DNA from: Giardia intestinalis
Taxonomy: Eukaryota
Direction: 5' to 3' (one strand)
Assembly: GCA_000002435.2 (NCBI GenBank)
Contig: CM018792.1
Length of the DNA stretch: 64,000 nt
Part shown: positions 5,523-31,376 of the stretch, one piece after another
Layout of the letters: each line of letters starts with the position of its first letter
How positions within the stretch are numbered: the stretch's first letter is position 1
Program-made: the position numbers and the translations under genes
Notes under the pieces: generated by a model
Told to the model about the DNA's origin: nothing
Databases searched by the model: none
Seen by the model: the letters and a program-made list of their open reading frames with translations, nothing else

Positions 5523-5531
5523 ACCCATAAA

Positions 5532-5981: not shown

Positions 5982-5992
5982 ACGACGGTTTA

Positions 5993-8212
5993 CTACAGGT
6001 AGCTGAACCTCGCCGGCCCTGCGTGGGCCTCGCGGTCCAGCTCTCCGAGCCCCAGGTCTCCCCCGACCGCCGACCGCCCGAGGGAGCCGCTGCGGATGAG
6101 GTTCGACATCTCGTCGATGAGGTCTGGCATCGCAAAGTGCTGGGAGCCCCGCGGGCCTGCGTCGCCGTCCTCAAGCGCCTTACTGGACTCGGTGGCCTTC
6201 TTGAGCGTGTCGCTCAGACGCTTGTTGCAGATCCACATGTCGTCGATCAACATCGAAATCACGGAGTTGGCCTCGGTCACCTTGCGCGACTTGTCGAAGA
6301 GCCGCTCGCGCAGGGCCTCGACTTCTGCGCGAAGGTCTGCGTAGCGCTCGACCGTGATGCCCTCGGCCTCGAACTGCTCCATCGCCTCCTGCATCCCGAG
6401 AAGGTTGCGCTGCATCTCCTCCATCTCCTCGAGGAGCTTCTTTGCGTCCTCGTGCTCTGCGCTCAGGGCGTCGAGCTCGCGGCGCGTCTCGTCCAGCTCG
6501 CGCGCCGCGTTGCCTCCCGCGGCTTCGGCCCGGGCCAGCTCTCCCTCGAGCTCTTTGACGCGCTCCTGGGCCGTTATCAGCTGCCCCAGGACGGAGTCGT
6601 CGCTGTTCTGGAGGTCTGTGATGTGCTTCTCGAGCTCGCGGACGTGTGCATTCATGAGCTCGACCTCGCCCCGCGCGGCCTCGACTTCCTGGCGGGCGGC
6701 GGCCTTGACCTCCTCGACCTCCTCCTCCATCGCCTGGGTGTCGCGGACCTTCTCTGCATACCTCGCCTCTGCGGCGGCAACCTTCTTCTCGAGCTCGGAC
6801 ATGTCGTACAGATGGCCCTTCATCTCGCGAATCGCCGCCGCCTGCTCGTCCACCTTTGCACGAAGGTCATCGCGCTCCTGAGCCACGACCTGGAGCTCGA
6901 CCCGGAGCTTCTCAAGCTCGCGGATCGCATCTCCCTGGGAGAGGATGTCCTCGATCGCCTGGAAGAAGCTGTCCGAGTCACGCACGCCGAGGAGATCTGC
7001 AAGGCGCTGGATCGCCTCGGTAAGGGGCTTGTCGGTGACCAGGTTGAACTCCTCGCTCCGGCTGTCGAGGATGAGGGCGGTGACGATGCACGGCTCGACC
7101 TCGTCCTCGTAGACCTGCAGAATCTCCTGGCATTGCCGGTGGCCGTGCTGGACGGCGATGTCGTATGCAGACTGGCCTGCATCGTTCCGGAGCCCGTGCT
7201 CGAGGGGAGCGAGGAGCCCGACGATAGGCGCGTGGCCGGCCAGGGCTGCGTGCTGGAGCGCAGTGGCCTTCCCGGGGGAGTGGCCGAGAGGCGCCGTGCT
7301 CTGGAGGTTGGCCTCGAAGGGCGCGAGGGCCCCGACGATCTCGAGGAAGCCCCGGTGTGCGGCGAACATCATCGCAGTTGTTCCGGTCTTGTTGGGCTGG
7401 GCATTTTCGGCGTCGATGAGGTGCTTCACGCACGCGAGGTGGCCTGCGTCTGCTGCGAGGATCAGGGCGGTCGAGCCCTCGTGGTCGCCGCAGCTCGGGT
7501 TGTCGGGGATCGCCGCGCCGACGTCCTCGGGCGTCCTTTCAATCAGCACTCGGACGGCGTCTGCGCGCCCGAACTCTGCGGCAAGCATGAGGGGCGTCTT
7601 CCCCGACGCATCCCGTGTTCCGCGGTAGAGGTCGGCGAGGAGCGTTACCGAGACGGTGGGGTCTCGCGGAGAGAGGGCGGCATAGTGGAGGGGTGTGCGG
7701 CCCAGGCAGTCCCGGGTCTGGGCGCCTGCGGCCACGTGGGCCCTCAGGGCCGGCTCGTTCAGATCGAGGGCGGCGAGAAGGGGCTCGGCGAGGTACGGCC
7801 GCTCCTGGTCGAACGCCAGGAGTGCCTTCGTGGTCGAGAGGTGGCCGCGGGAGGCGGCGATCTCAATGGCCGTCGCACCAGCTGGGTACCCGAAGGCCGC
7901 GGCGGAAAGCTGCCTCCCAGCCTGGTAGGGCGCGAGGGCTGAGACCGCCGCATCGTGGCCGTGCATGGCCGCCGACATGAGGGCGGTCCAGCCTGTGTCG
8001 CTCCGGATGTCCTTCTCGTACGGGAGAAGGTACTTGACCGTGCCTGTGTGGCCGCCCTGGGCTGCAAGGTGTAGCGCCGTGAGCCCGGGCCCGTCCGGGA
8101 GCACGGCCCCCTGGTACTGCTTGCAATGGACAACGGTGAACTTGATCTCTCCGGACCGCGCCGCCTCAAACCAGGCGTCGAGGTTTCGCTTGTATTGCGA
8201 GTCGTCGGGCAT
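5993..8212 (-). CDS. Ankyrin-repeat + coiled-coil protein (Giardia Protein 21.1 family)
   Basis: The ORF-track start at 8242 is GTG. The first ATG lies 10 codons in (MPDDSQYKRNLDAWFEAARSGEIKF). At least 8 ankyrin repeats are visible (TALHLAAQGGHTGTVKYLL, TALMSAAMHGHDAAVSAL, TPLHYAALSPRD, TPLMLAAEFGRADAVRVLI, TALILAADAGHLACVKHLI, TAMMFAAHRGFLEIVGAL, TALQHAALAGHAPIVGLL). A ~300-aa Glu/Ala/Arg-rich coiled-coil tail follows. Confidence 0.8.
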   Translation of the reverse strand: MPDDSQYKRNLDAWFEAARSGEIKFTVVHCKQYQGAVLPDGPGLTALHLAAQGGHTGTVKYLLPYEKDIRSDTGWTALMSAAMHGHDAAVSALAPYQAGRQLSAAAFGYPAGATAIEIAASRGHLSTTKALLAFDQERPYLAEPLLAALDLNEPALRAHVAAGAQTRDCLGRTPLHYAALSPRDPTVSVTLLADLYRGTRDASGKTPLMLAAEFGRADAVRVLIERTPEDVGAAIPDNPSCGDHEGSTALILAADAGHLACVKHLIDAENAQPNKTGTTAMMFAAHRGFLEIVGALAPFEANLQSTAPLGHSPGKATALQHAALAGHAPIVGLLAPLEHGLRNDAGQSAYDIAVQHGHRQCQEILQVYEDEVEPCIVTALILDSRSEEFNLVTDKPLTEAIQRLADLLGVRDSDSFFQAIEDILSQGDAIRELEKLRVELQVVAQERDDLRAKVDEQAAAIREMKGHLYDMSELEKKVAAAEARYAEKVRDTQAMEEEVEEVKAAARQEVEAARGEVELMNAHVRELEKHITDLQNSDDSVLGQLITAQERVKELEGELARAEAAGGNAARELDETRRELDALSAEHEDAKKLLEEMEEMQRNLLGMQEAMEQFEAEGITVERYADLRAEVEALRERLFDKSRKVTEANSVISMLIDDMWICNKRLSDTLKKATESSKALEDGDAGPRGSQHFAMPDLIDEMSNLIRSGSLGRSAVGGDLGLGELDREAHAGPARFSYL

Positions 8213-8266
8213 CCAGGAATTTTGTGTTGGCTGCAATTTCACATGAACTTGCGATCGGAATTTACA

Positions 8267-9559
8267 ATGGACCCCGAGAGCACCCTGCTTGGCGCGGCAA
8301 TCCAGGAGCTCTGGGCCATCAGCCGCCGCCTCGACGAGCTCTCGGCTCGGAAGGCGCCTCTAATGACCGCGATTGCGGTGCGCGAACAGAGGCTCGCCGC
8401 CCTCGAGGTCGCTCTCGGGGCCCCCACGCCCCGTCACAGAGCAGCCCTTGTGACGCGCAGCAGCGCCGTGTCTCTTGAGCAGGCGACTGCAGCCCAGATC
8501 TACGCGGGCCAGCCGCCCCTTCTCTACCTCCAGGACCGCGAGTCGCACATAGGCTCAACTCGCATGGCCCCGCTCCCTACAGACCCGTGCGCCGCCTTCG
8601 CGAGCGAGGAGGCCTCCAGCTTCGTCGGCTTCGAGCCGGCCTATCCAACGAACATCGCAGGGATCGGCGGGGTCCTGGGGCCCCGCTCGGGCATTCCCCT
8701 ACGCCTCCGCCCCGTGAAGAACCGCTTTCGCGCAAACGACGACCTTGTCAAGGGCCTTCGGACGCTTTCGCCCGCAGACGCACAGGGCGCGCCCTACTTT
8801 TCCCGCCCAGTTGTCTCCCCGGACGACGAGCACGACGACGTGACGCACCTCCAGGCGGTCCAGAACGTCGGGCTCTACGCCGCAGCGCCCCTGCTCCCGC
8901 TGGCATCGGCGCCTGTCGGGCCTTCGAGGACACACGCCCGTCAGCGGCAGTTCAGCGTCGTTGGGGTCAGCAAGGCGGTCGAGGAGGCCTTCGAGTTTGC
9001 AAACATCGAGCGCCTGGTGGCAGACCTCAACGACGACGGGGTGCCGTCTGCGGTTGAGCCCTCCTCGGCCGCGCCTGTGCTTCCTCGGGCCCGCGGGTCG
9101 CTTGCGGGCAGAGGTGGGCGTGCGCCGGGGATCTGCCGCCTCTCCACGCACCGCGGAGTGCCCAGCCGCCCGGCCTCTGGGGGCTCTGCATTCGACGAGA
9201 CCCGTCGCATCGTCGGCGAGATGATGGCCGGCAGCGCCGCCCCCACGCTCGACCGTCTGCGCCGCGCATTTGCAGACCGAAACCTCCGACTGCGACGAGC
9301 GCTCGCCGCGCGCCTCGAGACCCAGGTGCTCTGCCTCCGCTGGCAGCGTCTGGAACGGCCCCTGAGTCGCCCGGTAGACAAGACCCTCGACCTCCTTTGC
9401 AAGCACCGGCTCAACAGCCTACCCGGCTTTGCCACGAGTAGTTTGCGCCTGATGAACCGAAGCAGGCGCCACGGAGTTGCGTGGGAGGGGTTTACACCGG
9501 TCACAGGCTCCTCCCCCGGCCCCGGAACTCCTCGGCAGGAGGCGGAAGTGTCTCTGTAG
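8267..9559 (+). CDS. Hypothetical protein (430 aa, G+C-rich, no recognised domain)
   Basis: In the ORF-track frame 8126-9559 I take the start as the ATG at 8267 (MDPESTLLGAAIQELW). It is preceded by aatttacaATG. The upstream in-frame part would overlap the divergent ankyrin gene. The sequence is non-repetitive, but the product is unassigned. Confidence 0.5.
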   Translation: MDPESTLLGAAIQELWAISRRLDELSARKAPLMTAIAVREQRLAALEVALGAPTPRHRAALVTRSSAVSLEQATAAQIYAGQPPLLYLQDRESHIGSTRMAPLPTDPCAAFASEEASSFVGFEPAYPTNIAGIGGVLGPRSGIPLRLRPVKNRFRANDDLVKGLRTLSPADAQGAPYFSRPVVSPDDEHDDVTHLQAVQNVGLYAAAPLLPLASAPVGPSRTHARQRQFSVVGVSKAVEEAFEFANIERLVADLNDDGVPSAVEPSSAAPVLPRARGSLAGRGGRAPGICRLSTHRGVPSRPASGGSAFDETRRIVGEMMAGSAAPTLDRLRRAFADRNLRLRRALAARLETQVLCLRWQRLERPLSRPVDKTLDLLCKHRLNSLPGFATSSLRLMNRSRRHGVAWEGFTPVTGSSPGPGTPRQEAEVSL

Positions 9560-10313
9560 GCCGGACGTCCTCGGGCCCGTCCTCGCTGGCCACGAGAGCC
9601 TCGTCCTCCGGGGACAAAGGCCTCCTGAAGGCTCTTCGCGGCAGGACATACGCTGCGACGACGCCCGAGAGCGTGTAGGGAACGCCCTCCCAGGGGGGAT
9701 AGAGCATCACCTGGGCCATGAGGACGGTGACGAGGATGACGCCCCACGCCGGGATGGGGCACCGGAAGCAGCAAGTGAACGACTTATGCCCGGACAGCCG
9801 GATCCCCATAATCGTCAGGAATACCAGCAGGGGTCCGGGCCCCATGTTCGCATTGCTTGTCCACTGGGCGGCGAAGTACGGGACGTCCCGGAGGCCGGGG
9901 GTGAGGGCGAGGAGGGCCGTGAGGGCCGACGTCAGAAGGGAGACGCAGGGGACCGCAAAGGCGAGGAGCCCGAGAAAAACCTTCCAGCCGACGGTCCGCT
10001 CCAGTAGGAACGCAGAGTTCCAGCCGATCAAGGCGAAGAGGGCTCCCTGGAAGACGGACTCCGGGAGAACAGGGGCGCTGACCAGCCGCCAGAGCTCCAG
10101 GTCCTTGTATGCACGCTCCATATTGATGGAGAGCCAGATTGCAGCCTGGAAGCCCCCCGCCAGCGAGGCCAGCGACAGGGAAAGGCCGGCGAGCAGCTCG
10201 AGGGCAAGAAGGCAGAGTGCACACCGGGGCATCGCGAGAAGCGCAGCTCCGAACCTGTGGCAGCATCCCGCTGGCCGTGCCGGGGGGTCGTCAGGTTGCA
10301 TGCCGGGGGGCAT
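9501..10313 (-). CDS. Multi-pass membrane protein (~5-6 TM helices); weak Derlin-like WRL motif after TM1 (speculative)
   Basis: The ORF-track start at 10316 is TTG. The ATG at 10313 gives MPPGMQPDD. Clear hydrophobic helices are present (LLAMPRCALCLLALELLAGLSLSLASLAGG, FLGLLAFAVPCVSLLTSALTALLAL, PLLVFLTIMGIRL, WGVILVTVLMAQVMLY). The motif LELWRLVSAPV is reminiscent of the Derlin QxWRLxTxF motif. The 3' end overlaps the convergent gene at 8267-9559 by ~59 nt. Confidence 0.5.
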   Translation of the reverse strand: MPPGMQPDDPPARPAGCCHRFGAALLAMPRCALCLLALELLAGLSLSLASLAGGFQAAIWLSINMERAYKDLELWRLVSAPVLPESVFQGALFALIGWNSAFLLERTVGWKVFLGLLAFAVPCVSLLTSALTALLALTPGLRDVPYFAAQWTSNANMGPGPLLVFLTIMGIRLSGHKSFTCCFRCPIPAWGVILVTVLMAQVMLYPPWEGVPYTLSGVVAAYVLPRRAFRRPLSPEDEALVASEDGPEDVRPTETLPPPAEEFRGRGRSL

Positions 10314-10324
10314 CAAAATTATAA
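10314..10324. promoter_or_regulatory. 11-nt A/T-only bidirectional initiator between divergent ATGs (CAT caaaattataa ATG)
   Basis: Read directly. It lies inside otherwise very G+C-rich DNA. Confidence 0.5.
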
Positions 10325-11665
10325 ATGCCTATCAGCGATGGCATCCCGACGGCCATCCTCACAGCCCACCGGGGACGCATTCGGGCGCTGCTTCTGACAC
10401 TCCACGGCCAGCTGGGCCTCCGGGAGGTTGTCTTTGCAGCCCTGGCCAACCTTTCCCTGCTCGAGCCCCCAGGGCCCGCTGCGGCACCCACGCCCCTCCC
10501 CGACTATGATTGCTGCGAGCTCTACCAGGTCGTCACCAGGTCTCGCCGTAACCTCCTCCAGTGGCTCCCCCCGCTCCACTTGACCCTTGAAGACCTCCGG
10601 CGTGTCCAGACGCGTGTCCGGGGCGACGCCGAGCTCCTCACGTTCTTCCTTGTTGTGAAGCAGCACGTCACCCGGCTCCGATACACCCACCCCCTGGCAC
10701 AGCCTGGAGGTCCCGGGCTGGCTGCCGCCCCCGAGGCAAGCGCCCGCTGTCGGGACATCGGGTACGCCGCAGCAGACCTCCGAGGGTCAACGCGCGCCAG
10801 TCTGGACCCCGCAGACCTTCTGGGCGGCCCCTTGGAGGACCCGGCGCTGGCTGTCTGCCGCACCCTCCGGGGCCTTCATCCGGCTCCCTGGGTCCTTCCC
10901 ATGGGCGTCCTTGCGCAGCACTACGGCACGTTTCTGCAGCGATCCGGGGTCCAGGGGCCGTTCTTTGTGCGCGTCGTCCAGATGCCCCCGATCACGCCCT
11001 CGGGTGGCCAGGAGTCTCGCCGGCTGTTTTCGCGCCGCCAGTTTCTTGAGGTCGGGCTGTACGTGCGGGCCGGAAGCACGCTCTACACGCTCCTCCTTCC
11101 TCTCGTGGCCGTCGGGCGCGCCCTCCATCACCTCGCCGTGGCCACTCGACTTGCCGCCCCCTGGCCGCTGCTCCTGTCTCCAGACCTGCTCCTGGCAGTC
11201 CGTGTCTCCCCCATCGGCTTCGCCGTCCACGTCCTCTCGACGTTCTGGACCGTCTGCGTCATCTACATCTTTCAGCTCGCGAGCGTTCCCAGCCTCGCCG
11301 CCCTGGCCGCCCTCTACTGGAAGACCTACGTCGTCACGTACGCCGCCAAGGCCCTCATCTACAGCACCGCGAACTTCCTGCCGCCCGCGCCAATCGTCGA
11401 GTTCATCAAGTCTGCAGACCCCGTGGGGGCCGAGGGCGTCCTCTACCACGCGTTCTTCGACGACTTCTTCCGCGAGGACTGCGAGCAGCGGGCCCATGGG
11501 GGCTACCGGAGGGTCGCGCAAGCCCCGGCTGTCTTCAAGCTCCTCGAGGAGGCGAACATCAATCTTCCGCAGCCCCAGGGGCCCCGCATGCACAGCGCCG
11601 CAAGGCTTGTGCTCCTGCTGTTGGCCACGCTGCTTCCAAGCTTCGACCCTCAGAGACGCTTCTAG
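10325..11665 (+). CDS. Hypothetical protein (446 aa) with hydrophobic C-terminal half
   Basis: The ATG sits in catcaaaattataaATG. This is an A/T-rich initiator shared head-to-head with the gene at 9501-10313. The sequence is non-repetitive. Hydrophobic segments are visible (LYTLLLPLVAVGRALHHLAV, FAVHVLSTFWTVCVIYIFQLASVPSLAALAALYW). The stop lies 7 nt before the next ATG. Confidence 0.55.
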   Translation: MPISDGIPTAILTAHRGRIRALLLTLHGQLGLREVVFAALANLSLLEPPGPAAAPTPLPDYDCCELYQVVTRSRRNLLQWLPPLHLTLEDLRRVQTRVRGDAELLTFFLVVKQHVTRLRYTHPLAQPGGPGLAAAPEASARCRDIGYAAADLRGSTRASLDPADLLGGPLEDPALAVCRTLRGLHPAPWVLPMGVLAQHYGTFLQRSGVQGPFFVRVVQMPPITPSGGQESRRLFSRRQFLEVGLYVRAGSTLYTLLLPLVAVGRALHHLAVATRLAAPWPLLLSPDLLLAVRVSPIGFAVHVLSTFWTVCVIYIFQLASVPSLAALAALYWKTYVVTYAAKALIYSTANFLPPAPIVEFIKSADPVGAEGVLYHAFFDDFFREDCEQRAHGGYRRVAQAPAVFKLLEEANINLPQPQGPRMHSAARLVLLLLATLLPSFDPQRRF

Positions 11666-11672
11666 TCAAAAA

Positions 11673-12623
11673 ATGGAAGAGGTCGTCATTGCCACGGGGA
11701 GCTACGACGGGTCGATCAAGCTCTGGCGGCCGACCTCTGAAAGTGCGCTCCGCACGCTGAACTTCGGAAAGGTCGCCAACGGGCTGGCCCTCAGCGCGGA
11801 CCGGAAAGTCCTGCTTGCAGCCGGGTTCTCCGCCACGACCGTTTATGACCTCGGCTCTGCCGGGCGGGACCCAGTCGCCGCCTTCGACGGACACCTCTCC
11901 AACGTCACAGGATGCTGCTTTCTCCAGGGCGACTCGACCGTCGCCAGCGTGGGCGAGGACGGACGCCTTCTGCTCTTCGACACCCGCGGGGGGAAGCAGA
12001 CTAGCTGCATCGTCCACGACGCGGCCCTCAACACGCTCTCTGTCGCGTGCGACCGGGGGGATGCGGCGCTCCTCGTCACGGGAGATCAGGAGGGTCGCCT
12101 GCTTGCGTACGATCTGCGCCAGCCCCGGCACCCCTTCGCAACGACGGTCGCGTTCGAGTGCGACGTCGGCGTCCGTTCGGTCAGCTGCGCCCCGGGGGCT
12201 CAAATCCTCGCGTGCTCTGACGGGCGGGGCATCGTCCGCGTCTACGCCTACAAGGGCAGCAGCCACTTCTTCGCGCCTCAGCAGTCCATCCAGGCGCACT
12301 TGGATGCCGTGATGCACGTCAACCTCTCTCCGGACGGGGCCGTCCTGGCGACGTGCAGCGCCGACAAGACTTGCAAGATCTGGTCCGTTGCTCTTGAGGA
12401 GGACTGCTATCTGACGCGCGCCCGCGTGCTGGGGACAAACGAGGCCACGGTCTGGGCGAGCGCCTTTAGTGCGGACTCGGCGTGCATCATCACGGCCGCA
12501 GACAAGAGCGCGAAGCTCTGGAACATCGCGGGCGACCCGACCGACAAGTATGTCTACGCCTACAACGGGCACTCGCACACCGTGACGACGGTGGTTCTCG
12601 GAGACGTCCGCCTTCCCCTGTGA
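11673..12623 (+). CDS. LST8: LST8 (G-beta-like, TOR complex subunit), 316-aa seven-WD40 protein
   Basis: The ORF-track ORF 10911-12623 carries a spurious Ser/Pro/Arg-rich N-extension overlapping the upstream gene. The real start is aaaaaATGgaagag ([18 protein letters not shown]). It aligns by eye with human MLST8 along its length. Examples: VILATAGYDHTVRFW; LATCSADQTCKIW against [37 protein letters not shown] against [31 protein letters not shown] against YNGHSHTV. Confidence 0.8.
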   Translation: [316 protein letters not shown]

Positions 12624-12657
12624 TTCCCTGCGCCGTTCCCTGCGCGCCTGCAAAAAG

Positions 12658-13842
12658 ATGCTCTATAGCGCTTCAGATGTCGAACGCGTTCCTACGGACT
12701 CCCGAATCTGCGTCCTCCTGACCACCCTCTTTACCGTCCCTCCCGGCGGCGATCCTGCCGAGCCGAGCCAGCGGTGCCCGCGCAAGACGTTTATCTCGGC
12801 GATCCTCGAGGGCTCTGGCCGCGGGCTGCAGGGCTCCTGGGAGGAGGTCGCAGAGCCCGTCTGCCTGCTCGAGGCGTACGATCCCGCCCTGCCCTACGCG
12901 ATCCGGGTCGCAGCGGGCGCCGGCCGGGTCGCCCGGGACCCGACGCTCCCTGCCTCGCACTACCTCTATGCCGCACACAAGCAGGGCCTCTCCGTGGGCT
13001 GCCCACACTATGTCCGGGGCTGCCTCCTCTACTGCGCAGTCTGCGGAGAGCGCTCTCCATGCCGCTTCTGCCACGATGCCTCCCACGACGACCACGAGTT
13101 CCCGCGGACCCGCACGGCAGAGGTCTTCTGTCTCTTCTGCCGCGCCACCGGCCCCATCGGGCTCCGCTGCACACACTGCCAGATGCCCTTCGGGACGCGC
13201 TACTGCGAGACGTGTCGCCTCATCTGCGGAATGGGCCGCGAGGGGCGTCCGAGCTTCCACTGCGCCCGCTGCGGGACGTGCCGGCAGGGCCTTCCGGGGT
13301 ACTCGGAGCACTGCGAGCGTTGCGGGACATGCCACACAGTCGCCCTTGGCCAGGTTCACGCGTGCGCGCCGGACCCCGGGAACTGCGTCTACTGCCTCGA
13401 CGGCCTCCGGGACAACATCTACCCGTACATCGTCCTTCCCTGCGGGCGCCACTCGTGCCACCGCCACTGCTACGAGGCCGTCTTTCGCCTGGGTGGGGCG
13501 AACTACAAGTGCCCGGTCTGCCGCCGGCTCGTCCTCTTCGGGCAGGACAGGGAGCTCTACGAGGCGCGCCTGGAGGAGCTCCGGGGATCGCTTGCGGTCC
13601 CGCCCGAGTACCGGGGCGTCTTCGTCGACTGCGCATGCCACGAGTGCGGCGGGCTCTTTGTCGCCCGGCGCCACCACCTCTACCGCTGCCCGGGCTGTGG
13701 CTCCCACAACGCCGCCGAGCGCGGGCTCTTCAGAGGCGCCGCCGCAGACGCGCGCCGCGCAATCGCGCTCCAGGCCCGCTCCGGGGCGTTTACTAGAACA
13801 GGGCGTCAAGGGCCGCCTCCAGCTGGGCCCCAAACTGGGTAA
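12658..13842 (+). CDS. RCHY1: CHY zinc-finger + CTCHY + RING-H2 + C-terminal zinc-ribbon E3 ubiquitin ligase (Pirh2/RCHY1 type)
   Basis: Motif order: GCPHYVRGCLLYCAVCGERSPCRFCHD..H (CHY finger); CLFCRATGPIGLRCTHCQMPFGTRYCETCRL..FHCARCGTCR..EHCERCGTCH (CTCHY); CVYCLDGL..PYIVLPCGRHSCHRHCYEAVF..YKCPVCRR (RING-H2); CHECGGLFVARRHHLYRCPGCGSHN (zinc ribbon). The ATG is preceded by tgcaaaaag. Confidence 0.8.
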   Translation: MLYSASDVERVPTDSRICVLLTTLFTVPPGGDPAEPSQRCPRKTFISAILEGSGRGLQGSWEEVAEPVCLLEAYDPALPYAIRVAAGAGRVARDPTLPASHYLYAAHKQGLSVGCPHYVRGCLLYCAVCGERSPCRFCHDASHDDHEFPRTRTAEVFCLFCRATGPIGLRCTHCQMPFGTRYCETCRLICGMGREGRPSFHCARCGTCRQGLPGYSEHCERCGTCHTVALGQVHACAPDPGNCVYCLDGLRDNIYPYIVLPCGRHSCHRHCYEAVFRLGGANYKCPVCRRLVLFGQDRELYEARLEELRGSLAVPPEYRGVFVDCACHECGGLFVARRHHLYRCPGCGSHNAAERGLFRGAAADARRAIALQARSGAFTRTGRQGPPPAGPQTG

Positions 13843-16270
13843 GCCGGTGGCTAGGCTCATCACAAAACCCTTTTGGTACTTCACTTTCTGCAAGTATCAC
13901 TTGCCCTGGTGCAGAGGTTTCCGTAGACCCTAAGAGAGACCAGGTATTGTTGAAGGCTTGTGGTTGCTCTTCTATGCAAGGCTCTCTCTTTGTGTGTCCA
14001 CCTAATGCACGAATCATTTGTCTGCCACTGGCCCGTGTGCTTATTAGTGCATACACCTGCCCGTCAGGGCTACAATCTACCCCGCATACTCTATCTCGCT
14101 TATGCCGTTTTTCAAAAATGACTACCTTTTCTTCTATTGCACCGTTCGCTAGCTTAAAAAGCATGCCCTTATCATCACCAATTCCAAAGACATAATGACG
14201 ATCGTTACTGTCAGGATGCGGAGATAGACAAACTTGGTGTATTATTGGCAGGCTGATACTTAGAGGCCGCTTCCTATTAGAATCCTGCTTCTTTGTAGAG
14301 ATACTTGAGTCCCTAATAAACTTATAGTAAAATATTCCTGCTGGGCTGGTGATGCAGACAGAGGTATCACCGACGGCACACATAGTTCTTCGGGTTCGGT
14401 AAGATGAACTCTTTCCTCTAGTCGCTAATAGGTCGAACCTCTCCAGCACCTTGATGCTCACGGGAAAAGGGTGACCATTCTCACTCTTTTCTGAACCGGA
14501 GTAAATAATCTCATAGACGCGCAGCTCCAAGTGGTGCTTATCAAGCTCTGCGTCCCCGAGTACTGCACAGAAATAATGGCCATTTCTAGAAACTCCAGCT
14601 GCTTCCACCCATATGGGAATATCCCCAAGACCATCGCAGATGTCCCAATTAAATACCTCGACAATGCCTGCGTCGGTGAACGTGAAGACCTTAGCCTCTA
14701 GCTGGCTAACAGTTAAAAACAAATCGCAATTAGGAACAGACAACAGAGGAGCCAGCAACTTCACAGACGTGCTGTGCGGCCGAAAAATTTGGGCGAGACA
14801 GATGGAATCGTCAAAACGGCCAGTAGCACGATAAGCATAGAGCACCTCCTCTTGGTGAACATTGTGCGTCAGTTTTAGTCCTGTAACAGCAAGCAACAAA
14901 GATCCGTTAGCCAGCGCAGCGAAGTGAAGGATATGCGGAGGATCCGAGATTTCACATCGAGAATAGACTTTGTTTCGTTGTATAATAGTCACTATATCAG
15001 TTGAGTTCGTGGGTAGCAAAGCAGAACTTGGTATATTTTCTACCCCGTGGAAAAGCTGGATGTCTCCTGGAGACCCATCAGCTAGTATGCTGAGCTGGTC
15101 GTTCTCGCCATATAAGAAGATTCCTGGAGTATCCTTTGGTGTGTAACGCAAATTTCTAGCTGGAGAGACTAACCCATGCCTCTGAGCCATAATGACACCA
15201 GCAGCGGTATCTATCAAATACATTGTGTTGGTTGCTGTAACTACGCACGCCGTCTGGGAGTAGGTAAGAGAGGTTGGAGAGAAGATTGACGGACAAGGGC
15301 ACGAGATGTACCGTACCGGTCCAACCACAGCCGGTCCAAATTGCGGAGTATAATCAAGAAGCGAAAGATTGACCACGATTGTTTCCTCTCCTCCCAGTAG
15401 GACCTTAGGAGTGGCAGTGGTGGCATGAGCAACAGCCAACGCACTGATCCCATTTTTATTCCAATGGAACCGAACATGCTTTGATTGAGCAACAGTGGTT
15501 CCTATTGGTATGCCTTCAAAGCGGTACAGAGCCCCGCGAAGATCACCCATCAAGAATCCATAGGAGGTGCGATGGTTAAACGCAACCAACTGAGTAATAC
15601 AGGCGTCATGAGACATTGTGGAATAGTTATCTGGAAGCCTTCGTGGGGAGTCGGGCCTAGAATGCGGAAATCTGGCAAAGAAAAGCGTACAATCAATAGC
15701 TATATAAATGACGTCATCTGAAATGATTAGTCGACTGCTCGTCCGCTGCAAAGTAAGTTGGTCGGGAGTGACAGGCGGGGGATTCAAACAGACTACATCA
15801 GATAGGTCAAAGACGGCCTTACGCGGGTTGTTGGCTGCAGCCGAGAGACTGTACAAGATGAGAAAATGGGTTCTGTTCTTCGCTGCTTTGGCTTCCAGTA
15901 AGAAGACAAACTGATCAGATCCATCACACTGTGCACACGCAACAAATTCTGGCTCGTGCTGCAAAATGGATCCGTCCTTAGTCTTTTTGGGCCCCTTGTC
16001 CTCTGGTAAGGAGACTTCAAGCGAGAAGTCCCCCGTCCGTGTATTGTAAATAGAGAATCGATGCTTCGAGAGGATGAGAAGCTGTGAATCTGATGCGCGT
16101 AGGAACAAGAGTTGGACTATCCGCCGTTTATGTGTTGGTACTACCTTCAAGAGAGCAAGTGTCACTGGAGACAGTGCAATTATGGAGTCTCCGGTGGCAG
16201 AATAGATTGCGCTACCATCTGGAGCAAATGCAGGAGGGCAGGACGCCATAAAGCCACCGAATGCATCCAT
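13793..16270 (-). CDS. WD40/beta-propeller protein (825 aa), possibly t-UTP UTP17/WDR75-like nucleolar SSU-processome component
   Basis: ATG MDAFGGFMAS. The N-terminus pattern GGFMASCPPAFAPDGSAIYSATGDSIIALS resembles WDR75 (GGSELNFRRAVFSADSKYIFCVSGDFVKVYS). Multiple WD-like blades run through the protein. The 3' end overlaps the convergent RCHY1-like gene by ~50 nt. The stop TAG is embedded in AGTAAAC on the minus strand. Function is low confidence. Confidence 0.7.
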   Translation of the reverse strand: MDAFGGFMASCPPAFAPDGSAIYSATGDSIIALSPVTLALLKVVPTHKRRIVQLLFLRASDSQLLILSKHRFSIYNTRTGDFSLEVSLPEDKGPKKTKDGSILQHEPEFVACAQCDGSDQFVFLLEAKAAKNRTHFLILYSLSAAANNPRKAVFDLSDVVCLNPPPVTPDQLTLQRTSSRLIISDDVIYIAIDCTLFFARFPHSRPDSPRRLPDNYSTMSHDACITQLVAFNHRTSYGFLMGDLRGALYRFEGIPIGTTVAQSKHVRFHWNKNGISALAVAHATTATPKVLLGGEETIVVNLSLLDYTPQFGPAVVGPVRYISCPCPSIFSPTSLTYSQTACVVTATNTMYLIDTAAGVIMAQRHGLVSPARNLRYTPKDTPGIFLYGENDQLSILADGSPGDIQLFHGVENIPSSALLPTNSTDIVTIIQRNKVYSRCEISDPPHILHFAALANGSLLLAVTGLKLTHNVHQEEVLYAYRATGRFDDSICLAQIFRPHSTSVKLLAPLLSVPNCDLFLTVSQLEAKVFTFTDAGIVEVFNWDICDGLGDIPIWVEAAGVSRNGHYFCAVLGDAELDKHHLELRVYEIIYSGSEKSENGHPFPVSIKVLERFDLLATRGKSSSYRTRRTMCAVGDTSVCITSPAGIFYYKFIRDSSISTKKQDSNRKRPLSISLPIIHQVCLSPHPDSNDRHYVFGIGDDKGMLFKLANGAIEEKVVIFEKRHKRDRVCGVDCSPDGQVYALISTRASGRQMIRALGGHTKREPCIEEQPQAFNNTWSLLGSTETSAPGQVILAESEVPKGFCDEPSHRLTQFGAQLEAALDALF

Positions 16271-24271: not shown

Positions 24272-26779
24272 ATGAACTGGGCAGAATTTTCAAAAACCGC
24301 GGAAACCATAGCTGCGCTTACTCCTTTTACCCTGGCGCCACAACAGAGGGCTGTGACCCCGGTGGCTCCTTACATGGAGCTAGCCATCCTGAGTGGAGAG
24401 AGCATAGATACCGCTGGCTCGGGCCTTTCTGATGTATCGTGTCCTCCACTGTCAACTGTAGAGGCCCCAATCTGGGGGTCTTTAGCACTTTCCACATATA
24501 GTGATCGTGAGCCAGACCCTGCTCTTCGGGCTGCATTTCAAGCTTGGCGTGCCCAGGCAAAGATGAGGAGATTGATCCTAAAACCGTATAGACGCATTGT
24601 CCGGCGATGGCACCGTCTAACAGAAGAGTCTAAGCGAGGAGAAGTCGCTTGGTCATTTTATCGACAAGCACTTTTGCAGAAGGCCTTCAATTCTCTTTTG
24701 TATCGAGTTACCACTTGCACCCATCTCACCGCACGACTGGGGTTTAAAACTCTGAGGGATATTGCTACCATAAGGAAACACGAACGCGATGTGGCTGACG
24801 AATACTACTGTGCCCGTCTTTGTGCCAAGACTTTACGCGGCCTTTTTCAATCAATTACAAAGCGCTGCCGGATCTTTCTCCAAATCCAGAGGGCTCGCGA
24901 ACTGCGTCTTCTCTCTCATACGTTTAGGCACATGCGAGTCGAGGCGTCTCTCATTGCATTAGCATTTCGCATTTATCGACGCATAACACTACATAAAGTT
25001 GTTTCCATTTGGCGACGTATGCTGCGTATTCATGTGGTAGAACAGCGCGTTAACCAGGTGATCTTACGTCACTGCTTCATTAGGTGGCGGCACCGATACA
25101 GACGCAGTCTTGCGCTCTTGCGTGATATGTATGTCCGCCAGGGGTATGACGAAGATCTGGCGCTTACTCTGGCGATTGCTTCAGAGAACGTCTGCCTCTT
25201 GCTCCGCGCTTTCTATAGTTGGCTGAAAAGAACAAGACATAAGTTACATCAGAAAATGTTGCAATCCGTCATTAATGCATTTCAGCGACAGCATCTTTTG
25301 CGGTCTGCCCTATGCAGTATAACGGAGCGTTACAAAACGATACTGGCGAGACGCCAGGCTATTTCTTCGTGTCTGCAGTCTATTGATCGTCGAACTTTGA
25401 TCCTTACCCTCAGAAGATGGAAGGGCAACGCGCAAAGTGCTAAGATTGCCCGTATTTCTTCCAATATGGTCGCACGCGAGCATAACCTCCTAGTACAGGA
25501 ACAGGCTTTCTGTGCCTGGAGAGTTGCTTGGAATATGCATCGTACAGCAAGAGCAAGATATGGTCCACTTGCATCTTCTCTGAATAGGATTCTTGTGCGT
25601 TATATATTTCACGAGTTGCAACAGAAGTACGAGGAGAACCGCTGCCGATTGGAGCGGGCAACTGAATTCCACGAAATACTGGTGAAACAATCGCTACATA
25701 AAGTGTTTAGTGCCTGGTATGTACGTTTTCTAGAACAAGAAAACACCGTGCAATTTCTCAGCTCTATTGTACACACGCTGGCAGACAGAGCCTATGATGT
25801 CTGTCACACGCGGGTACTTCGTCCTGGGAAGTGGTTTCTCGATACTCCTTCTTATAGACTTCTACGGAAGGCTTGGGATGCTTCCTGGTGGAAGTACAAA
25901 AAGCGTTCTGCTTATAGAGCAGTTCTCTTGCAAGCAGACAAGGATTATAACAATAAAGCTCTTGTGCGCACATTCTCTACATGGAGAATTGAGACAAAAG
26001 TATCTATTCTTTTGGCAATCTGGTACCCCAGGATACTTAGTGGCACCTTCACAGCTTGGCGCCTGGCTGCAGAAGGAAGTCGAGCGATTGCCCTTATGGA
26101 GTCCCAAGCCAGAATGAAGCATGAATACTCTTTGATGCATTGGACTTTCTGCTACTGGAAGCACATACGCAAGGTCTTGTCCACAGAGCGCCAGCTAGAG
26201 CAGACAATCTACTATAGAAGAGCCACACACATCCTCATATTATCGTTTAGAAGCTGGCACGCTGCGTATCTTCAAGACGTATATCTTAGAGCCAAAGAGC
26301 AGGAAGTGGCAGCCTCATGGTCCCGAACATCCCTTGCTATTGCACTGCGCAGCATATGCGCGGCGTACCTTTCACGCTTACGCTTCAGGGCAAACAGGAG
26401 GAGAAACGTGTTCACTGAGACGCTCGAAGGAATAACCGCCAGCCTTTCTTCCATCTGCATCGGCCGTTTGCTACTGGACATCCGCACGGAGCACATGAGA
26501 ATGTTGGTCCATATCTCACCTTTAAGGGTCGGGCAAATAGTCAAGAGCCCAGTCGCTGCTGTGGTGTGTGATCAAGGGTCTTCCCTACGTAGCTCACCCG
26601 AGCGTTCGCACTGGGAAATATTACGGGGACATAGAGAGAAGTACAGGTCAACGTATGAAGAAGATAGCGTTGGGATCATCCCACACAAAGTCCAGGACTG
26701 CGGGGCTCGGCAGCTCATTGATATCCTTGACAACAAGATAGCAGCACTCGGTCATCGTCTGGCAGGATGTAGCCCATAG
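24272..26779 (+). CDS. Sfi1-like centrin-binding repeat protein (835 aa)
   Basis: At least 11 copies of the Sfi1-type repeat core (F/L-x-x-W-K/R/H), spaced ~30-35 aa apart: AFQAWRAQ, VRRWHRL, VSIWRRM, FIRWRHR, FYSWLKR, TLRRWKG, AFCAWRV, VFSAWYV, TFSTWRI, TFTAWRL, TFCYWKH, SFRSWHA. The protein is basic and alpha-helical. Confidence 0.65.
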   Translation: MNWAEFSKTAETIAALTPFTLAPQQRAVTPVAPYMELAILSGESIDTAGSGLSDVSCPPLSTVEAPIWGSLALSTYSDREPDPALRAAFQAWRAQAKMRRLILKPYRRIVRRWHRLTEESKRGEVAWSFYRQALLQKAFNSLLYRVTTCTHLTARLGFKTLRDIATIRKHERDVADEYYCARLCAKTLRGLFQSITKRCRIFLQIQRARELRLLSHTFRHMRVEASLIALAFRIYRRITLHKVVSIWRRMLRIHVVEQRVNQVILRHCFIRWRHRYRRSLALLRDMYVRQGYDEDLALTLAIASENVCLLLRAFYSWLKRTRHKLHQKMLQSVINAFQRQHLLRSALCSITERYKTILARRQAISSCLQSIDRRTLILTLRRWKGNAQSAKIARISSNMVAREHNLLVQEQAFCAWRVAWNMHRTARARYGPLASSLNRILVRYIFHELQQKYEENRCRLERATEFHEILVKQSLHKVFSAWYVRFLEQENTVQFLSSIVHTLADRAYDVCHTRVLRPGKWFLDTPSYRLLRKAWDASWWKYKKRSAYRAVLLQADKDYNNKALVRTFSTWRIETKVSILLAIWYPRILSGTFTAWRLAAEGSRAIALMESQARMKHEYSLMHWTFCYWKHIRKVLSTERQLEQTIYYRRATHILILSFRSWHAAYLQDVYLRAKEQEVAASWSRTSLAIALRSICAAYLSRLRFRANRRRNVFTETLEGITASLSSICIGRLLLDIRTEHMRMLVHISPLRVGQIVKSPVAAVVCDQGSSLRSSPERSHWEILRGHREKYRSTYEEDSVGIIPHKVQDCGARQLIDILDNKIAALGHRLAGCSP

Positions 26780-27269: not shown

Positions 27270-27332
27270 AGAGCTTTTTAATTAGGTTGACTCGCCCGCA
27301 TCGGCTCGCAACCATCAGCCCTGTGAATACAT

Positions 27333-30300
27333 TTACTTTCTAAAGTCCCAGCAGTCCCCGTTGTTTGAAAGCTGGCCGCTCTTAGTGAAGATACTGGTGG
27401 TGCTATCCACGGGGTCGTAGACACGGCTCACAGACATCTCCGTCGCCGTGCAATCTGATATCATGGGGAAGAGCTCGCTATCGGTCAATGACACCACACT
27501 CATGCTAACCTCGATCATCGTCTCCTTGTAGTCCTTCGAGCGCATGAACTCCATACTATAGAGGTACCTGAACGTGACGTTCTGGCATATTCCACCGAAG
27601 AAGAGCCCGGCCCAGATGAGGTACTGGCAGAAGAAGATGGCTCCGAACGTCTCCAAGAGCCCCGTCCCCAGCGTCAGGCTCCTAATGCTCTCGGGGACCA
27701 CCTCTAATACGTAGGGAGTCGCCAAGCCCTTGGGCCCTGCCAGGATGTCCAGGAGCCTATTGAGCTGGACGTCGAGCGGCTCTATCACGTGCTTGTTGAC
27801 GGTACTTCCAAGCTCCATCAAAAGCGTGTCGTACATATGCTGAGAAAACCGCGGGTACAATCCTCCGGACAGGTTCTTCGAAACCATGTTTGCTTCGATG
27901 ATATCTAAGAGGATGGACAAAGGGGAGACTACAGCGTTGAGCAGCTCTGTGTATGCATCTATGAAGCTGACCTCATCGGTTGAAAAGCTACTCCAATCTT
28001 TAAACACATCCACAAACCGCTCATAGACCCTTGTTGTGTCTAGCACCACATCTAGTGCCCCGCTGGAGCCATCGTTCGGATTGCTCGCAGCATTCCAGCC
28101 AATCGTCTGGAAGCCCTTTTCCTGAAGCGCATACACGAGGTCTCGCACGGCTGCGTATGTGTTGGAGACGCAAATGGAGGTCTGTTCTACGGTGTCACCT
28201 GGGCGGATCTTCGTGCACAGGTTTCCAACGAGGTCTGGGTATGGAGACCCGTGGACGATGGAGGACAGGCTAGTGGAGATGCTTGGACACGAAGTCTTGA
28301 GGTTGGTTAGTTCGGCTCTTATCTTCTGCATTGTGCTCTTAATACTGCCCTGTGAACACAGATTCTTATCGACGGGGTTATCGGCAAGGAAGGTCACCGA
28401 GGGGCACTTTGTCATAGCGACCAAAGTATCCAGAAAGTGAATCATGGAAAGGCACTCTGCGACTATCCCCTTCTGGCCCCTAACGGCTTTGGCACTGGCT
28501 TCGAGGGACAGGGCGCTATAGTTCGCGCTGGAGGAAATGCCTCTGATATAGGCCTCAACCTGCGCTGTGACATTCATGGCAGCCAGAGCAGATGCATCAA
28601 CATCTCCGTACAAAGCTGTGCGCTTTTCTGTACTGGAGTATGTGTCGTTATATAGCTTGTGCCCTGCAGAGAAGTCCCCGAACAGGACGGCGTTCGAGAG
28701 CTCGCCACTGAGGAACGCGTTCCTAATCCCGCTAAGAAACGGATCAATGTCCGGAACAATGAAGGTCTCGAGGTACTGTGAGAGGCTGGAGCGGGGGTTG
28801 ATAGCTTCGGGTAGCACCGCGGGCAGCAGTCCTTGGAGCCCGCCCAAAAGATCCGGCAAGCCGAGGATATCGAGGATCCCTCCACCCTTCTTGTTGTAAT
28901 AGAGGAGGTCTTTGATGGACATGCGAGTTGTATCCACCCTCGTGGAAAGGCTCAGAGAGGCCATGCTGTCGTCAGGTTCGGCAGGAATCCCAAACATGCT
29001 CGGCAGGTTTCCGACGGCAACGGTAGCTGTCACGTTGGCGAGGCTCTTACGGAGAGCATCGTATGTGGTGTAATCCAGCACGGCGGACGACGGGGCTGTG
29101 TAGGCTAGGTCGGGGTGCCCCGTGTGCCGGAGCACAAAGGATCCCAGGTCCAGCTGGACCGGCGCAGGGTCTCCTATGACTCCGTTGTCTTTGAGGAGTT
29201 GGAGGACGGTGTCGTAGTTGTTGCGCAGAAGCTTGTCTGGGTTGGTGAGGAGCCCCGAATAGTACTCCAGAGCGAACTTCTGCAGAACCACCGCGACGAT
29301 CCCGAACAGCATCAGGAAAAGCGACACCCAGCAAACAACGCACCCGTTGCAGCACAAAGAGCAGCCAGCGCACCTCGTCTTGAAGCGCGCAGCGCCCACG
29401 ATCCCGCAAATGAACGTCCCGATTGGGACGAGGAGAAGAGCCAGGGCGAGCAAGAAAGGGGCCATCGATATCAGAACGTAATTGCGGCCAGCAGGCGGAA
29501 TCGTTGCCGGATCAAACCCAGAGAGCTTGCAATTCTTCAACGAGTCCAACGCACCGCCTTCTACAGGCAGGTCTGTTATGTAACCGGGGCAGGCCCCGTT
29601 GTTTATGAAGGCGTCGAACAGAGCACGCGCAGTCATCTGCTCCTTGTGGTCGTGGAGTTGCAGCACGTAGTTGATGTACTTGGAGAAGCTGGAGACCTGT
29701 GTCAGGGCATCGGTTGCGAGCTTAGGCAGGTTCAGCTGGTCGCTGATAGATCTGGCGAGCTCTTCGTCTGTTGGTCCTCCCTCGGCCCGCGTGGCAGACG
29801 CACACCACGATAGCTTGCCCTTAAGTGCCGGCTTGCCACACGCCCTCCGGACTATGTCCCCCACGGTTTGCGTCTTCGTGCTGAGTACTTCAAGCAAGTC
29901 AACGAGTAGTTGTGTGTCATCCTTACTCTGCTGTTTGCCAGACGCCTTCGGCCTTAACGAGTCTATAACGAACTTTATCACTATTTCGGGGTTGTTGTTG
30001 ACCGGGACATTCAGATCTGCTCTGTCAATAGGTGAATCGGAGGCAGCAGCAACACTGGACTTTGTTGTGCAATAATTATTTCCTGAGTTATCCTTAAAGA
30101 CCTGCTTGCACACCTTTTCAATGATAGTTTGCCAATTTCCTTGACCTGGTGGTTGCTGCTTATCTAGCGACTTCGCTATCCCGTTGGTGATAGAATTGGC
30201 CGCAAAGACAGCCCCGCCAATAAGAGACTTCTTGTTGATGTTCTTGTAGCTGGCCTCGGAGATTGCCGTGTCATCGGGTGGAGACGGAGGTTGCGTTGAT

Positions 30301-31106
30301 CGTATAGAGAAGTTGCCATAATTTTGCTTGCCTTCTAAACTCTTCTTTACTGATTCTTGCGTCTTTGTGTTCAACAATAAATCTAAGTTTTTCTGTATGT
30401 TATCTGAGAAATCTGTGATAGCACTCAACGAGGGTAGGGACGCAGGCGGCAGAAGGATGGTGCTGACCCCCTCTGCCAGCGAGGAATTCTGCGACAAGAC
30501 ATCAGAGACCACCCTCAGCGTGCAGCTCTTGGAAATCGCGCTTATGTACTCGCTGACCTCGTCTGCTGTTTTATTCAAGATATTGGAGATTGGGGAAATG
30601 GAACTATTATCTGAGCTCGAGATGAGCGCGTTTATAAGACTGTCTGAGGTGCTAATGGTGTCCGAAGCCAGATCGTAGACGCGATCGGTCGTTCGAGCCA
30701 CGACCCGGAACATGTTGTCCATGCCAATGAAGGGCTGGGAGACGGCGACGAACATCCCGATGCATCCGCAGAGGCCGATGACGTTGGCAGCGAGGCCCGT
30801 GTAGAAGCAGCAGCAGCGGTACTTGCTGGATGTCTGCTCCATCTCCAGCTTCCGGTGGCAGCATCTGCGACAGCACTGGCTACACCGGCAGGGGGCTATG
30901 CAGACGAGCGCAATGTTGAAGCAGAGCCCGAGGACAAAGGGAAGAACAAGCAGGACGCCCATGGCAACCAGGAGCGGAAGATACGGCTTGAGGGCAGCCA
31001 TGACATCCACTCCCCCGCCCTGGTGCATGAACAGGTTGGCCGTATCTATGATTGTTTCCGGCGGCACCCTCGGGAAGAACGCCGTACTAAAGGCCGTGAC
31101 CCCCAT
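27333..31106 (-). CDS. Large (1257 aa) five-TM membrane glycoprotein-like protein with two Cys-rich juxtamembrane loops; prominin-like topology
   Basis: The ORF-track start at 31109 is TTG. The ATG is at 31106. The order is TM1 (LPLLVAMGVLLVLPFVLGLCFNIALVCIAP), a Cys-rich short loop (CRCSQCCRRCCHRK..YRCCCFY), TM2, a ~500-aa loop, TM3 (FLLALALLLVPIGTFICGIVGAA), a Cys-rich loop (RCAGCSLCCNGCVVC), TM4, a ~600-aa loop, TM5 (LETFGAIFFCQYLIWAGLFFGGIC), and a C-terminal tail. Confidence 0.75.
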   Translation of the reverse strand: MGVTAFSTAFFPRVPPETIIDTANLFMHQGGGVDVMAALKPYLPLLVAMGVLLVLPFVLGLCFNIALVCIAPCRCSQCCRRCCHRKLEMEQTSSKYRCCCFYTGLAANVIGLCGCIGMFVAVSQPFIGMDNMFRVVARTTDRVYDLASDTISTSDSLINALISSSDNSSISPISNILNKTADEVSEYISAISKSCTLRVVSDVLSQNSSLAEGVSTILLPPASLPSLSAITDFSDNIQKNLDLLLNTKTQESVKKSLEGKQNYGNFSIRSTQPPSPPDDTAISEASYKNINKKSLIGGAVFAANSITNGIAKSLDKQQPPGQGNWQTIIEKVCKQVFKDNSGNNYCTTKSSVAAASDSPIDRADLNVPVNNNPEIVIKFVIDSLRPKASGKQQSKDDTQLLVDLLEVLSTKTQTVGDIVRRACGKPALKGKLSWCASATRAEGGPTDEELARSISDQLNLPKLATDALTQVSSFSKYINYVLQLHDHKEQMTARALFDAFINNGACPGYITDLPVEGGALDSLKNCKLSGFDPATIPPAGRNYVLISMAPFLLALALLLVPIGTFICGIVGAARFKTRCAGCSLCCNGCVVCWVSLFLMLFGIVAVVLQKFALEYYSGLLTNPDKLLRNNYDTVLQLLKDNGVIGDPAPVQLDLGSFVLRHTGHPDLAYTAPSSAVLDYTTYDALRKSLANVTATVAVGNLPSMFGIPAEPDDSMASLSLSTRVDTTRMSIKDLLYYNKKGGGILDILGLPDLLGGLQGLLPAVLPEAINPRSSLSQYLETFIVPDIDPFLSGIRNAFLSGELSNAVLFGDFSAGHKLYNDTYSSTEKRTALYGDVDASALAAMNVTAQVEAYIRGISSSANYSALSLEASAKAVRGQKGIVAECLSMIHFLDTLVAMTKCPSVTFLADNPVDKNLCSQGSIKSTMQKIRAELTNLKTSCPSISTSLSSIVHGSPYPDLVGNLCTKIRPGDTVEQTSICVSNTYAAVRDLVYALQEKGFQTIGWNAASNPNDGSSGALDVVLDTTRVYERFVDVFKDWSSFSTDEVSFIDAYTELLNAVVSPLSILLDIIEANMVSKNLSGGLYPRFSQHMYDTLLMELGSTVNKHVIEPLDVQLNRLLDILAGPKGLATPYVLEVVPESIRSLTLGTGLLETFGAIFFCQYLIWAGLFFGGICQNVTFRYLYSMEFMRSKDYKETMIEVSMSVVSLTDSELFPMISDCTATEMSVSRVYDPVDSTTSIFTKSGQLSNNGDCWDFRK

Positions 31107-31376
31107 CAATTATTATTTGTACTAATTGTCATGCATCATAAGTACGTTTTTCAGAACAGTGCGCCATTCTCCTCCTGGCACACTAGGTACCCTCTGCCGC
31201 CTTTTGCCGCCTCAACGCGGATTGCCTGTCTCAATAATTTGTAGACACTTGTCCGACAATTCGCCGTCTTACCTCTTCTCTTACCGGGGCCAGGGGTCGA
31301 CGAGGTTCCTAAAGTTATACACAAAATCTCGAATTCGTCGATTTCAGATTTAGATTTAAAGCTGCTGAAAATAAAT

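Follow-up and report, generated by a model that had tools for sequence, protein, structure and literature searches.

The open reading frame (ORF) on the minus strand at positions 27333-31106 of the window, by which we mean the whole analysed stretch of 64,000 nucleotides from contig CM018792.1 of Giardia intestinalis, encodes a protein of 1257 amino acids (aa), GL50803_0060774, that we take to be, with somewhat better than even confidence, a far-diverged diplomonad representative of the prominin/Tweety (TTYH) superfamily, related to it by very remote homology. Membership of the superfamily is favoured because several lines of evidence agree: i) the architecture of five transmembrane (TM) helices with two giant and two short loops; ii) the cysteine cluster in the short loops; iii) the emphasis of conservation on TM5; and iv) two independent profile matches that depend on residue order. 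The sequence alone cannot prove the relation to prominin or Tweety.

Gene and membrane layout

The reading frame is uninterrupted between its start codon (ATG at 31106) and its stop codon (TAA at 27335-27333) in the ORF list and the translation, and an exact-sequence look-up connected its product to GL50803_0060774 of Giardia intestinalis WB (XP_037902062.1; UniRef A0A644F6L3), to which it is identical; the 1257-aa protein that had been proposed in an earlier note on this DNA is therewith confirmed. The annotation on record is "hypothetical protein" only, and a literature search on the gene identifiers and on prominin- or Tweety-like proteins in Giardia found no paper.

The topology rests on hydropathy: a Kyte-Doolittle scan (19-aa window, threshold 1.6) gave exactly five hydrophobic segments in 2+2+1 order, at approximately aa 45-72, 101-124, 546-572, 593-615 and 1149-1174. 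This is the order that had been read from the letters before; the lengths of about 500 and 600 aa that had then been given to the large loops have to be replaced by the measured values of about 421 and 533 aa. The features of the gene are the following:

31107-31127, minus strand: AT-rich initiator-like stretch aaataataattgATG / ..tagtacaaataataattg / aaataataattg, directly upstream of the ATG (sequence read)
27333-31106, minus strand: complete coding sequence of GL50803_0060774, 1257 aa plus the TAA stop at 27333-27335 (translation, exact-sequence match)
30975-31106, minus strand: N-terminal segment, aa 1-44, predicted extracellular, no obvious signal peptide, motif MGVTAFSTAFFP (hydropathy, alignment)
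30891-30974, minus strand: TM1, aa 45-72 (Kyte-Doolittle peak 2.78)
30807-30890, minus strand: predicted cytoplasmic loop 1, aa 73-100, basic cysteine cluster with 9 cysteines, charges +7/-2 (sequence, charge count)
30735-30806, minus strand: TM2, aa 101-124 (Kyte-Doolittle)
29472-30734, minus strand: large loop 1, aa 125-545, 421 aa, predicted extracellular, mostly helical in the models (hydropathy, AlphaFold2)
29391-29471, minus strand: TM3, aa 546-572 (Kyte-Doolittle peak 2.66)
29331-29390, minus strand: predicted cytoplasmic loop 2, aa 573-592, ARFKTRCAGCSLCCNGCVVC, 6 cysteines, charges +3/0 (sequence, charge count)
29262-29330, minus strand: TM4, aa 593-615 (Kyte-Doolittle peak 2.87)
27663-29261, minus strand: large loop 2, aa 616-1148, 533 aa, predicted extracellular, mostly helical in the models (hydropathy, AlphaFold2)
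27585-27662, minus strand: TM5, aa 1149-1174, ..GLLETFGAIFFCQYLIWAGLFFGGIC, with the W1165 codon at 27612-27614 (Kyte-Doolittle, alignment)
27336-27584, minus strand: predicted cytoplasmic tail, aa 1175-1257, 83 aa (hydropathy, alignment)
27331-27337, minus strand: AGTAAAT, which fits the Giardia poly(A) signal consensus and overlaps the TAA stop (sequence read)

The cysteines of the protein (2.9% of all residues) are distributed very unevenly. The loop between TM1 and TM2 (CRCSQCCRRCCHRKLEMEQTSSKYRCCC, aa 73-100) contains nine of them and the stretch CAGCSLCCNGCVVC (aa 579-592) within the loop between TM3 and TM4 another six, so that 15 of the 37 cysteines fall inside 42 positions of the two short loops (hypergeometric p = 2.7e-14), and 13 are spread over the 954 ectodomain residues. 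The two short cysteine-cluster loops beside TM helices that the earlier note had pointed out are thus real, and the cluster of loop 1 is a candidate S-palmitoylation site.

The N-terminus is probably outside and the C-terminus inside, with the large loops facing outward. We infer this orientation because the short loops (+7/-2 and +3/0) and the stretch after TM5 (+4/-3) are net basic, in line with the positive-inside rule, and because nine of the ten N-x-S/T sequons fall within the large loops (four in large loop 1 and five in large loop 2); the outer flanks are approximately neutral. Hydropathy gave no indication of a cleavable signal peptide: no hydrophobic stretch lies ahead of aa 31-45, and a basic n-region is missing.

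Relatives and conservation

Homologs were sought in three ways: 5.8 billion clusters were queried through a word index, 1.84 billion representative proteins were scanned exhaustively with HMMER, and two scans covered JGI metagenomes. Orthologs were recovered from Giardia assemblage E (84% identical) and assemblage B (62-64% identical), and the WB genome itself encodes a paralog of 1195 aa, GL50803_0016888 (A8BG86; 30% identical), that scores 552 bits with Giardia profiles. A more distant protein of 1277 aa (P0005, 19% identical) is encoded on a 68.9-kb Logan contig from run SRR31929897 (L001:10001-13834, plus strand); it is a real homolog, since a hidden Markov model (HMM) built exclusively from Giardia sequences matches it in three collinear domains with 74.6 bits. 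That contig has a guanine-plus-cytosine (GC) content of 53-57%, and the genes called on it are open throughout; of five of its proteins that were tested, none clusters at 90% identity with a named protein, and no synteny with the window was found. No homolog from Giardia muris or Spironucleus turned up in any of the searches.

The five-helix layout is kept in the orthologs of assemblages B and E, in the paralog and in P0005, and the cysteine-rich loop 1 is kept in assemblage B, the paralog and P0005. Family-wide cysteines are also found in the ectodomains (C423, C506 and C526 in large loop 1; C885 and C917 in large loop 2). The paralog lacks most of the cysteines of loop 2 and has a short tail, and the cytoplasmic tail (aa 1175-1257) is poorly conserved outside G. 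intestinalis. TM5 is the best-conserved part of the protein: it is 85% identical in assemblage B, 54% in the paralog and 42% in P0005, where other regions reach approximately 60, 30 and 15%, respectively, and G1149, L1151, G1155, Y1162, W1165 and G1167 are invariant across the family.

The extreme N-terminus, MGVTAFSTAFFP (aa 1-12; 31071-31106, minus strand), is kept in the paralog (MGVTAFATAFFP) and is recognisable in P0005 (MTISSFFVSAAP), the N-terminus of which aligns from residue 4; the approximately 30 residues that follow the motif are not conserved. The motif is too short and uncharged for a classical signal peptide. N-myristoylation of Gly2 was considered and dismissed: G-V-T-A-F is off consensus and Gly2 is missing in P0005.

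Between assemblages A and B the large outward loops evolve fastest (53-68% identity) and TM5 and loop 2 (the latter 90% identical) are retained best, at 85-90%, a pattern that suits a host-exposed surface protein. The rapidly evolving ectodomains would also fit a receptor or adhesin in contact with the host, and the protein might then, whatever its ancestry, be a pentaspan of other function (such a receptor or adhesin, a protein of the endoplasmic reticulum or the peripheral vacuole, or a transporter) that has no role in membrane shaping; we regard this as improbable.

That the ORF is a long frame that arose by chance and does not represent a real protein-coding gene can be considered effectively refuted. 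The only argument for it is that the literature searched contains no published evidence of expression. Against it stand the intact ORF of 3.77 kb, the product of which is conserved in the three assemblages (A, B and E) and has a paralog and a distant homolog, the concentration of this purifying-like conservation in TM helices and cysteines, and the signals for initiation and polyadenylation at the two ends of the gene. Giardia genes typically carry short AT-rich initiators, and the consensus of the Giardia poly(A) signal is AGTRAAY. Because an AT-rich initiator abuts the ATG and AGTAAAT overlaps the stop, the gene looks as if it is expressed.

Order-dependent profile matches

Among 24,736 Pfam models, Prominin (PF05478) was the sole match of GL50803_0060774 (E 1.8e-5, 23.5 bits). 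The match is collinear and places aa 49-195 on profile positions 91-233, which comprise TM1, the cysteine loop, TM2 and the first 70 or so residues of the ectodomain; a variant of the protein that is 98% identical scored slightly better (E 6e-6, 25.1 bits) and the reversed sequence matched no Pfam model. The contribution of layout was assessed with segment-preserving shuffles (n = 59), in which residues were permuted inside the flank, TM1, loop, TM2 and ectodomain, so that layout and composition were retained. Only one of the 59 shuffles reached E <= 0.01 with Prominin and none reached the real score. The TM1-TM2 hairpin of P0005 matched another profile, Tweety (PF04906), with E 5e-6 to 1e-5 (24.5-26 bits), a score that was likewise attained by none of 59 shuffles. 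As the real sequences beat all 59 shuffles in both cases, residue order matters and not layout alone.

The hairpin of GL50803_0060774 itself reached only E 0.51 (9.4 bits) with Tweety. Human PROM1 recognises the Tweety profile at its TM1-TM2 hairpin only and with a score (30.1 bits) under the Pfam gathering cut-off of 31.8, for which reason this hairpin is the place where a signal of the superfamily is expected to survive. Searches of PDB sequences with phmmer and with profiles gave no match; they had no power, because PROM1 is absent from the PDB set and the PROM1 profile misses TTYH there.

Common descent or convergence

The same layout could have arisen in a diplomonad-specific pentaspan family that merely converged on that of prominin, in which case the Pfam matches would reflect the pattern of TM helix, basic cysteine loop and TM helix. 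We consider this possible, be it clearly the less likely explanation. Basic cysteine clusters next to the membrane are a generic device of palmitoylated membrane proteins, and the layout-preserving shuffles themselves draw the Prominin profile at E values around 1e-3. Against convergence speaks that the real sequences surpass every shuffle, GL50803_0060774 for Prominin and P0005 for Tweety, and that these two members, at only 19% identity, point independently and at equivalent profile positions to two mutually homologous families. Also the shared emphasis on TM5 and its tryptophan, and the enrichment of TTYH chains in the structure search described below, would be unexpected if convergence were the whole explanation.

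Various results weigh against a place in the prominin/Tweety superfamily, and most of them speak for convergence. Both profile matches stay under the Pfam gathering cut-offs (23.5 bits against 34.3 for Prominin; 24.5-26 bits against 31.8 for Tweety in P0005) and they are restricted to one hairpin. The Pfam search found no Prominin match in the assemblage-B ortholog or in the paralog GL50803_0016888, and that of P0005 is feeble (E 0.006), with 4 of its 59 shuffles also at E <= 0.01. All homology searches together returned Giardia proteins and P0005 only, without bridging sequences. Alignment of the family with 25 mammalian PROM1 sequences by hhalign gave E 5e-5 and a probability of 68%, a score that was equalled by 8 of 80 layout-preserving column shuffles; this match was therefore dropped as evidence. 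The same was done for the alignment of TM5, in which hhalign sets FFCQY..LIWAG on FLCSY..LFWFG of PROM1 and W1165 on the tryptophan of PROM1 TM5, since 13 of 100 shuffles reached its score. For TM3-4 hhalign found no collinear PROM1 match. What remains of the prominin-type assignment in the earlier note is a layout that is real and conserved, together with Prominin as the only Pfam match; the sub-threshold score, the confinement to a single hairpin and hhalign scores inside the shuffle range keep it from being more firmly established.

The second-best hhalign hit (E 0.002) paired the TM3-TM4 hairpin (29262-29471) with the TM1-TM2 hairpin of PROM1, and the former resembles the first hairpin of PROM1 almost as well as the hairpin at 30735-30974 does. 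This hints either at an ancient internal duplication, which would have produced two halves that each consist of a hairpin and an ectodomain, or at layout as the driver of the hhalign scores. A self-comparison with hhalign for an internal repeat yielded nothing usable.

The AlphaFold2 models have to be counted among the unfavourable results as well. Models based on four and on nine sequences were both poor (pLDDT 32.7 and 36.0, respectively), and only their secondary structure deserves mention: both contained approximately 60% helix and essentially no strand. With the first model Foldseek returned noise only. With the second, chains of TTYH3, TTYH2 and TTYH1 determined by cryo-electron microscopy were found at ranks 2-5, 20 and 24 of 350,542 chains, with non-significant scores (E 0.24-0.94, TM-score about 0.1) and amidst ABC exporters, which likewise have long membrane-spanning helices; ABC proteins apart, the TTYH chains ranked highest.

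A putative role in membrane organisation

Supposing that the protein does belong to the prominin/Tweety superfamily, a mechanism can be outlined by analogy. Hallmarks of prominin are cholesterol binding, enrichment in membrane protrusions and vesicle release. In the Giardia protein, which would be inserted N-terminus out and C-terminus in, DHHC acyltransferases, which Giardia possesses (PMC4109852), would S-palmitoylate the two short, basic and cysteine-dense cytoplasmic loops and in this way pin them to the inner leaflet. On the other side of the membrane, the very large and largely alpha-helical outward loops might together form a disulfide-stabilised stalk above a five-helix bundle, and this bundle, with its strictly conserved TM5 (C-x-Y..W-x-G), could engage membrane lipids. 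The protein would then be sorted to curved, cholesterol-rich domains of the plasma membrane (the flagellar membrane, the flange or budding vesicles) and help to shape or shed them. The palmitoylation, the all-helical stalk, the lipid binding, the localisation and the activity in curvature or vesicle formation are all inferred from the analogy with known family members, and a role in the flagella or the ventral disc in particular is pure speculation.

In its widest form the proposal holds that diplomonads have retained an extremely divergent branch of the prominin/TTYH superfamily, with two Giardia paralogs, giant helical ectodomains and twin palmitoylatable cysteine loops; that the superfamily goes back to the last eukaryotic common ancestor; and that the protein organises lipids and curvature in flagellar or flange membranes or in the shedding of microvesicles. 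We put this forward tentatively and would not be surprised to see it fail. On this reading Giardia, which scavenges cholesterol and is short of canonical membrane-remodelling machinery, would have a dedicated lipid-organising curvature protein. If the relationship to prominin and TTYH as such holds, GL50803_0060774 and GL50803_0016888 would become candidates for the shaping and shedding of membranes and the handling of scavenged cholesterol, processes that are linked to attachment, flagellar membranes and the release of extracellular vesicles. The Metamonada would then join the lineages with prominin/TTYH-type proteins, which would support the view that this membrane-bending fold is older than the divergence of extant eukaryotes. 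The conserved tryptophan of TM5 offers a ready point mutant, W1165R, that mirrors the human retinal-disease allele W795R. Should the proposed kinship turn out to be wrong, these proteins would still represent a clean case of convergence on a pentaspan design with cysteine loops.

Neighbouring genes and a GC-rich block

The neighbours of GL50803_0060774 are unrelated (an Sfi1-like protein, the 161-aa hypothetical protein GL50803_004820, a MatE transporter and a RING-finger protein) and, the host being a eukaryote, the gene neighbourhood is uninformative on its function. The adjoining ORF of 835 aa (24272-26779, plus strand) has a weak match to the Pfam domain Sfi1 (E 5e-6, 25.7 bits, just over the cut-off of 22); Sfi1 is a centrin-binding spindle-body protein, so this ORF could be of interest for the biology of the Giardia basal body.

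Elsewhere in the window, at approximately 5500-14000, lies a block of 8.4 kb with a GC content of 64-71% and razor-sharp edges in surroundings of 45-49%. An interpretation of this block (67% GC) as ribosomal DNA or contamination was dismissed; native Giardia genes lie inside: those for 'Ankyrin repeat protein 1' (5993-8212, minus strand) and 'G beta-like protein GBL' (11673-12623, plus strand). Each of the two has two accessions in the WB genome, and for neither protein does the identity between the assemblages (A, B and E) fall below 90%. The order of these accessions, GBL-Ank-Ank-GBL, suggests an inverted duplication of which one arm lies inside the window, and GC-biased gene conversion between the arms would explain the block and is a candidate explanation for it.

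Comparison with known systems

The VSPs and the high-cysteine membrane proteins (HCMPs) are likewise surface-type proteins of Giardia, and acylation of the cysteine in the VSP tail has been reported in this organism. Membership of these families was dismissed on the basis of helix number, cysteine distribution and C-terminus: VSPs and HCMPs have a single TM helix, a CXXC-rich ectodomain and a CRGKA tail, whereas GL50803_0060774 has five helices, concentrates its cysteines on the cytoplasmic side and ends in ..DCWDFRK.

With the Tweety proteins TTYH1-3 (PF04906; structures 7P5J, 7P54 and 7P5C) the protein shares the 2-2-1 arrangement of helices and, by prediction, an N-terminus that is translocated without a signal peptide. 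TTYH is an ancient family that is present in protists: homologs have been described from Entamoeba, Dictyostelium, Arabidopsis and diatoms, in the study that also defined the 2-2-1 'Tweety domain' (PMC8273234). The differences are considerable, as TTYH chains count approximately 395 aa, with ectodomains that are several-fold smaller than those of GL50803_0060774, and lack a conserved tryptophan in TM5 (Bell et al. 2024; PMC11405016).

Bell et al. (PMC11405016) treat prominin and TTYH as accepted homologs, and the putative prominins that they curated include some from fungi, excavates, SAR and plants. The view of the prominins as an essentially metazoan family, which the earlier note took, is therefore outdated, both for the prominins (PMC11405016) and in view of the Tweety homologs (PMC8273234), and a prominin-type member in a protist is less surprising than was assumed there, because both families had already been reported outside the metazoans. 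The curation of prominins relied on helices in 2+2+1 order, two large loops of more than 300 aa and two intracellular loops of less than 25 aa (PMC11405016). GL50803_0060774 has five helices in this order, and its charges and sequons predict the orientation of prominin (N-terminus out, C-terminus in), with two large sequon-bearing loops facing outward and two short ones facing inward. Its large loops of 421 and 533 aa exceed 300 aa; of the inner loops, loop 2 (about 20 aa) is below 25 aa and loop 1 (about 28 aa) is slightly longer, depending on where its boundaries are drawn. The differences from prominin are: the size of the ectodomains, which is 1.5-2 times that in prominin (the large loops of PROM1 being approximately 280 aa each; Bell et al., PMC11405016); the lack of an N-terminal signal peptide, as judged from hydropathy; and the lack of detectable prominin similarity in TM3-4, the ectodomains and the cytoplasmic tail.

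The likeness to PROM1 extends to the cysteine cluster and perhaps to TM5. CD133 has a cysteine cluster at the boundary of TM1 and the first cytoplasmic loop for which palmitoylation has been proposed (PMC10967083), and GL50803_0060774 has one at the same boundary (CMCRCCNKC in PROM1, CRCSQCCRRCC here); further cysteines occur in the second inner loop of both, and this second cluster is much denser in the Giardia protein. The tryptophan of TM5 (human W795) is near-universal and the most conserved residue of prominins (Bell et al., PMC11405016), and TM5 is a conservation hot-spot in both proteins, with a tryptophan in an L-x-W-x-G context that may be the equivalent residue in the Giardia protein. 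GL50803_0060774 is placeable in neither the prominin nor the TTYH branch: it combines the prominin-like traits of giant loops, a cysteine cluster and the TM5 tryptophan with the TTYH-like traits of a missing signal peptide and, in P0005, a match to Tweety.

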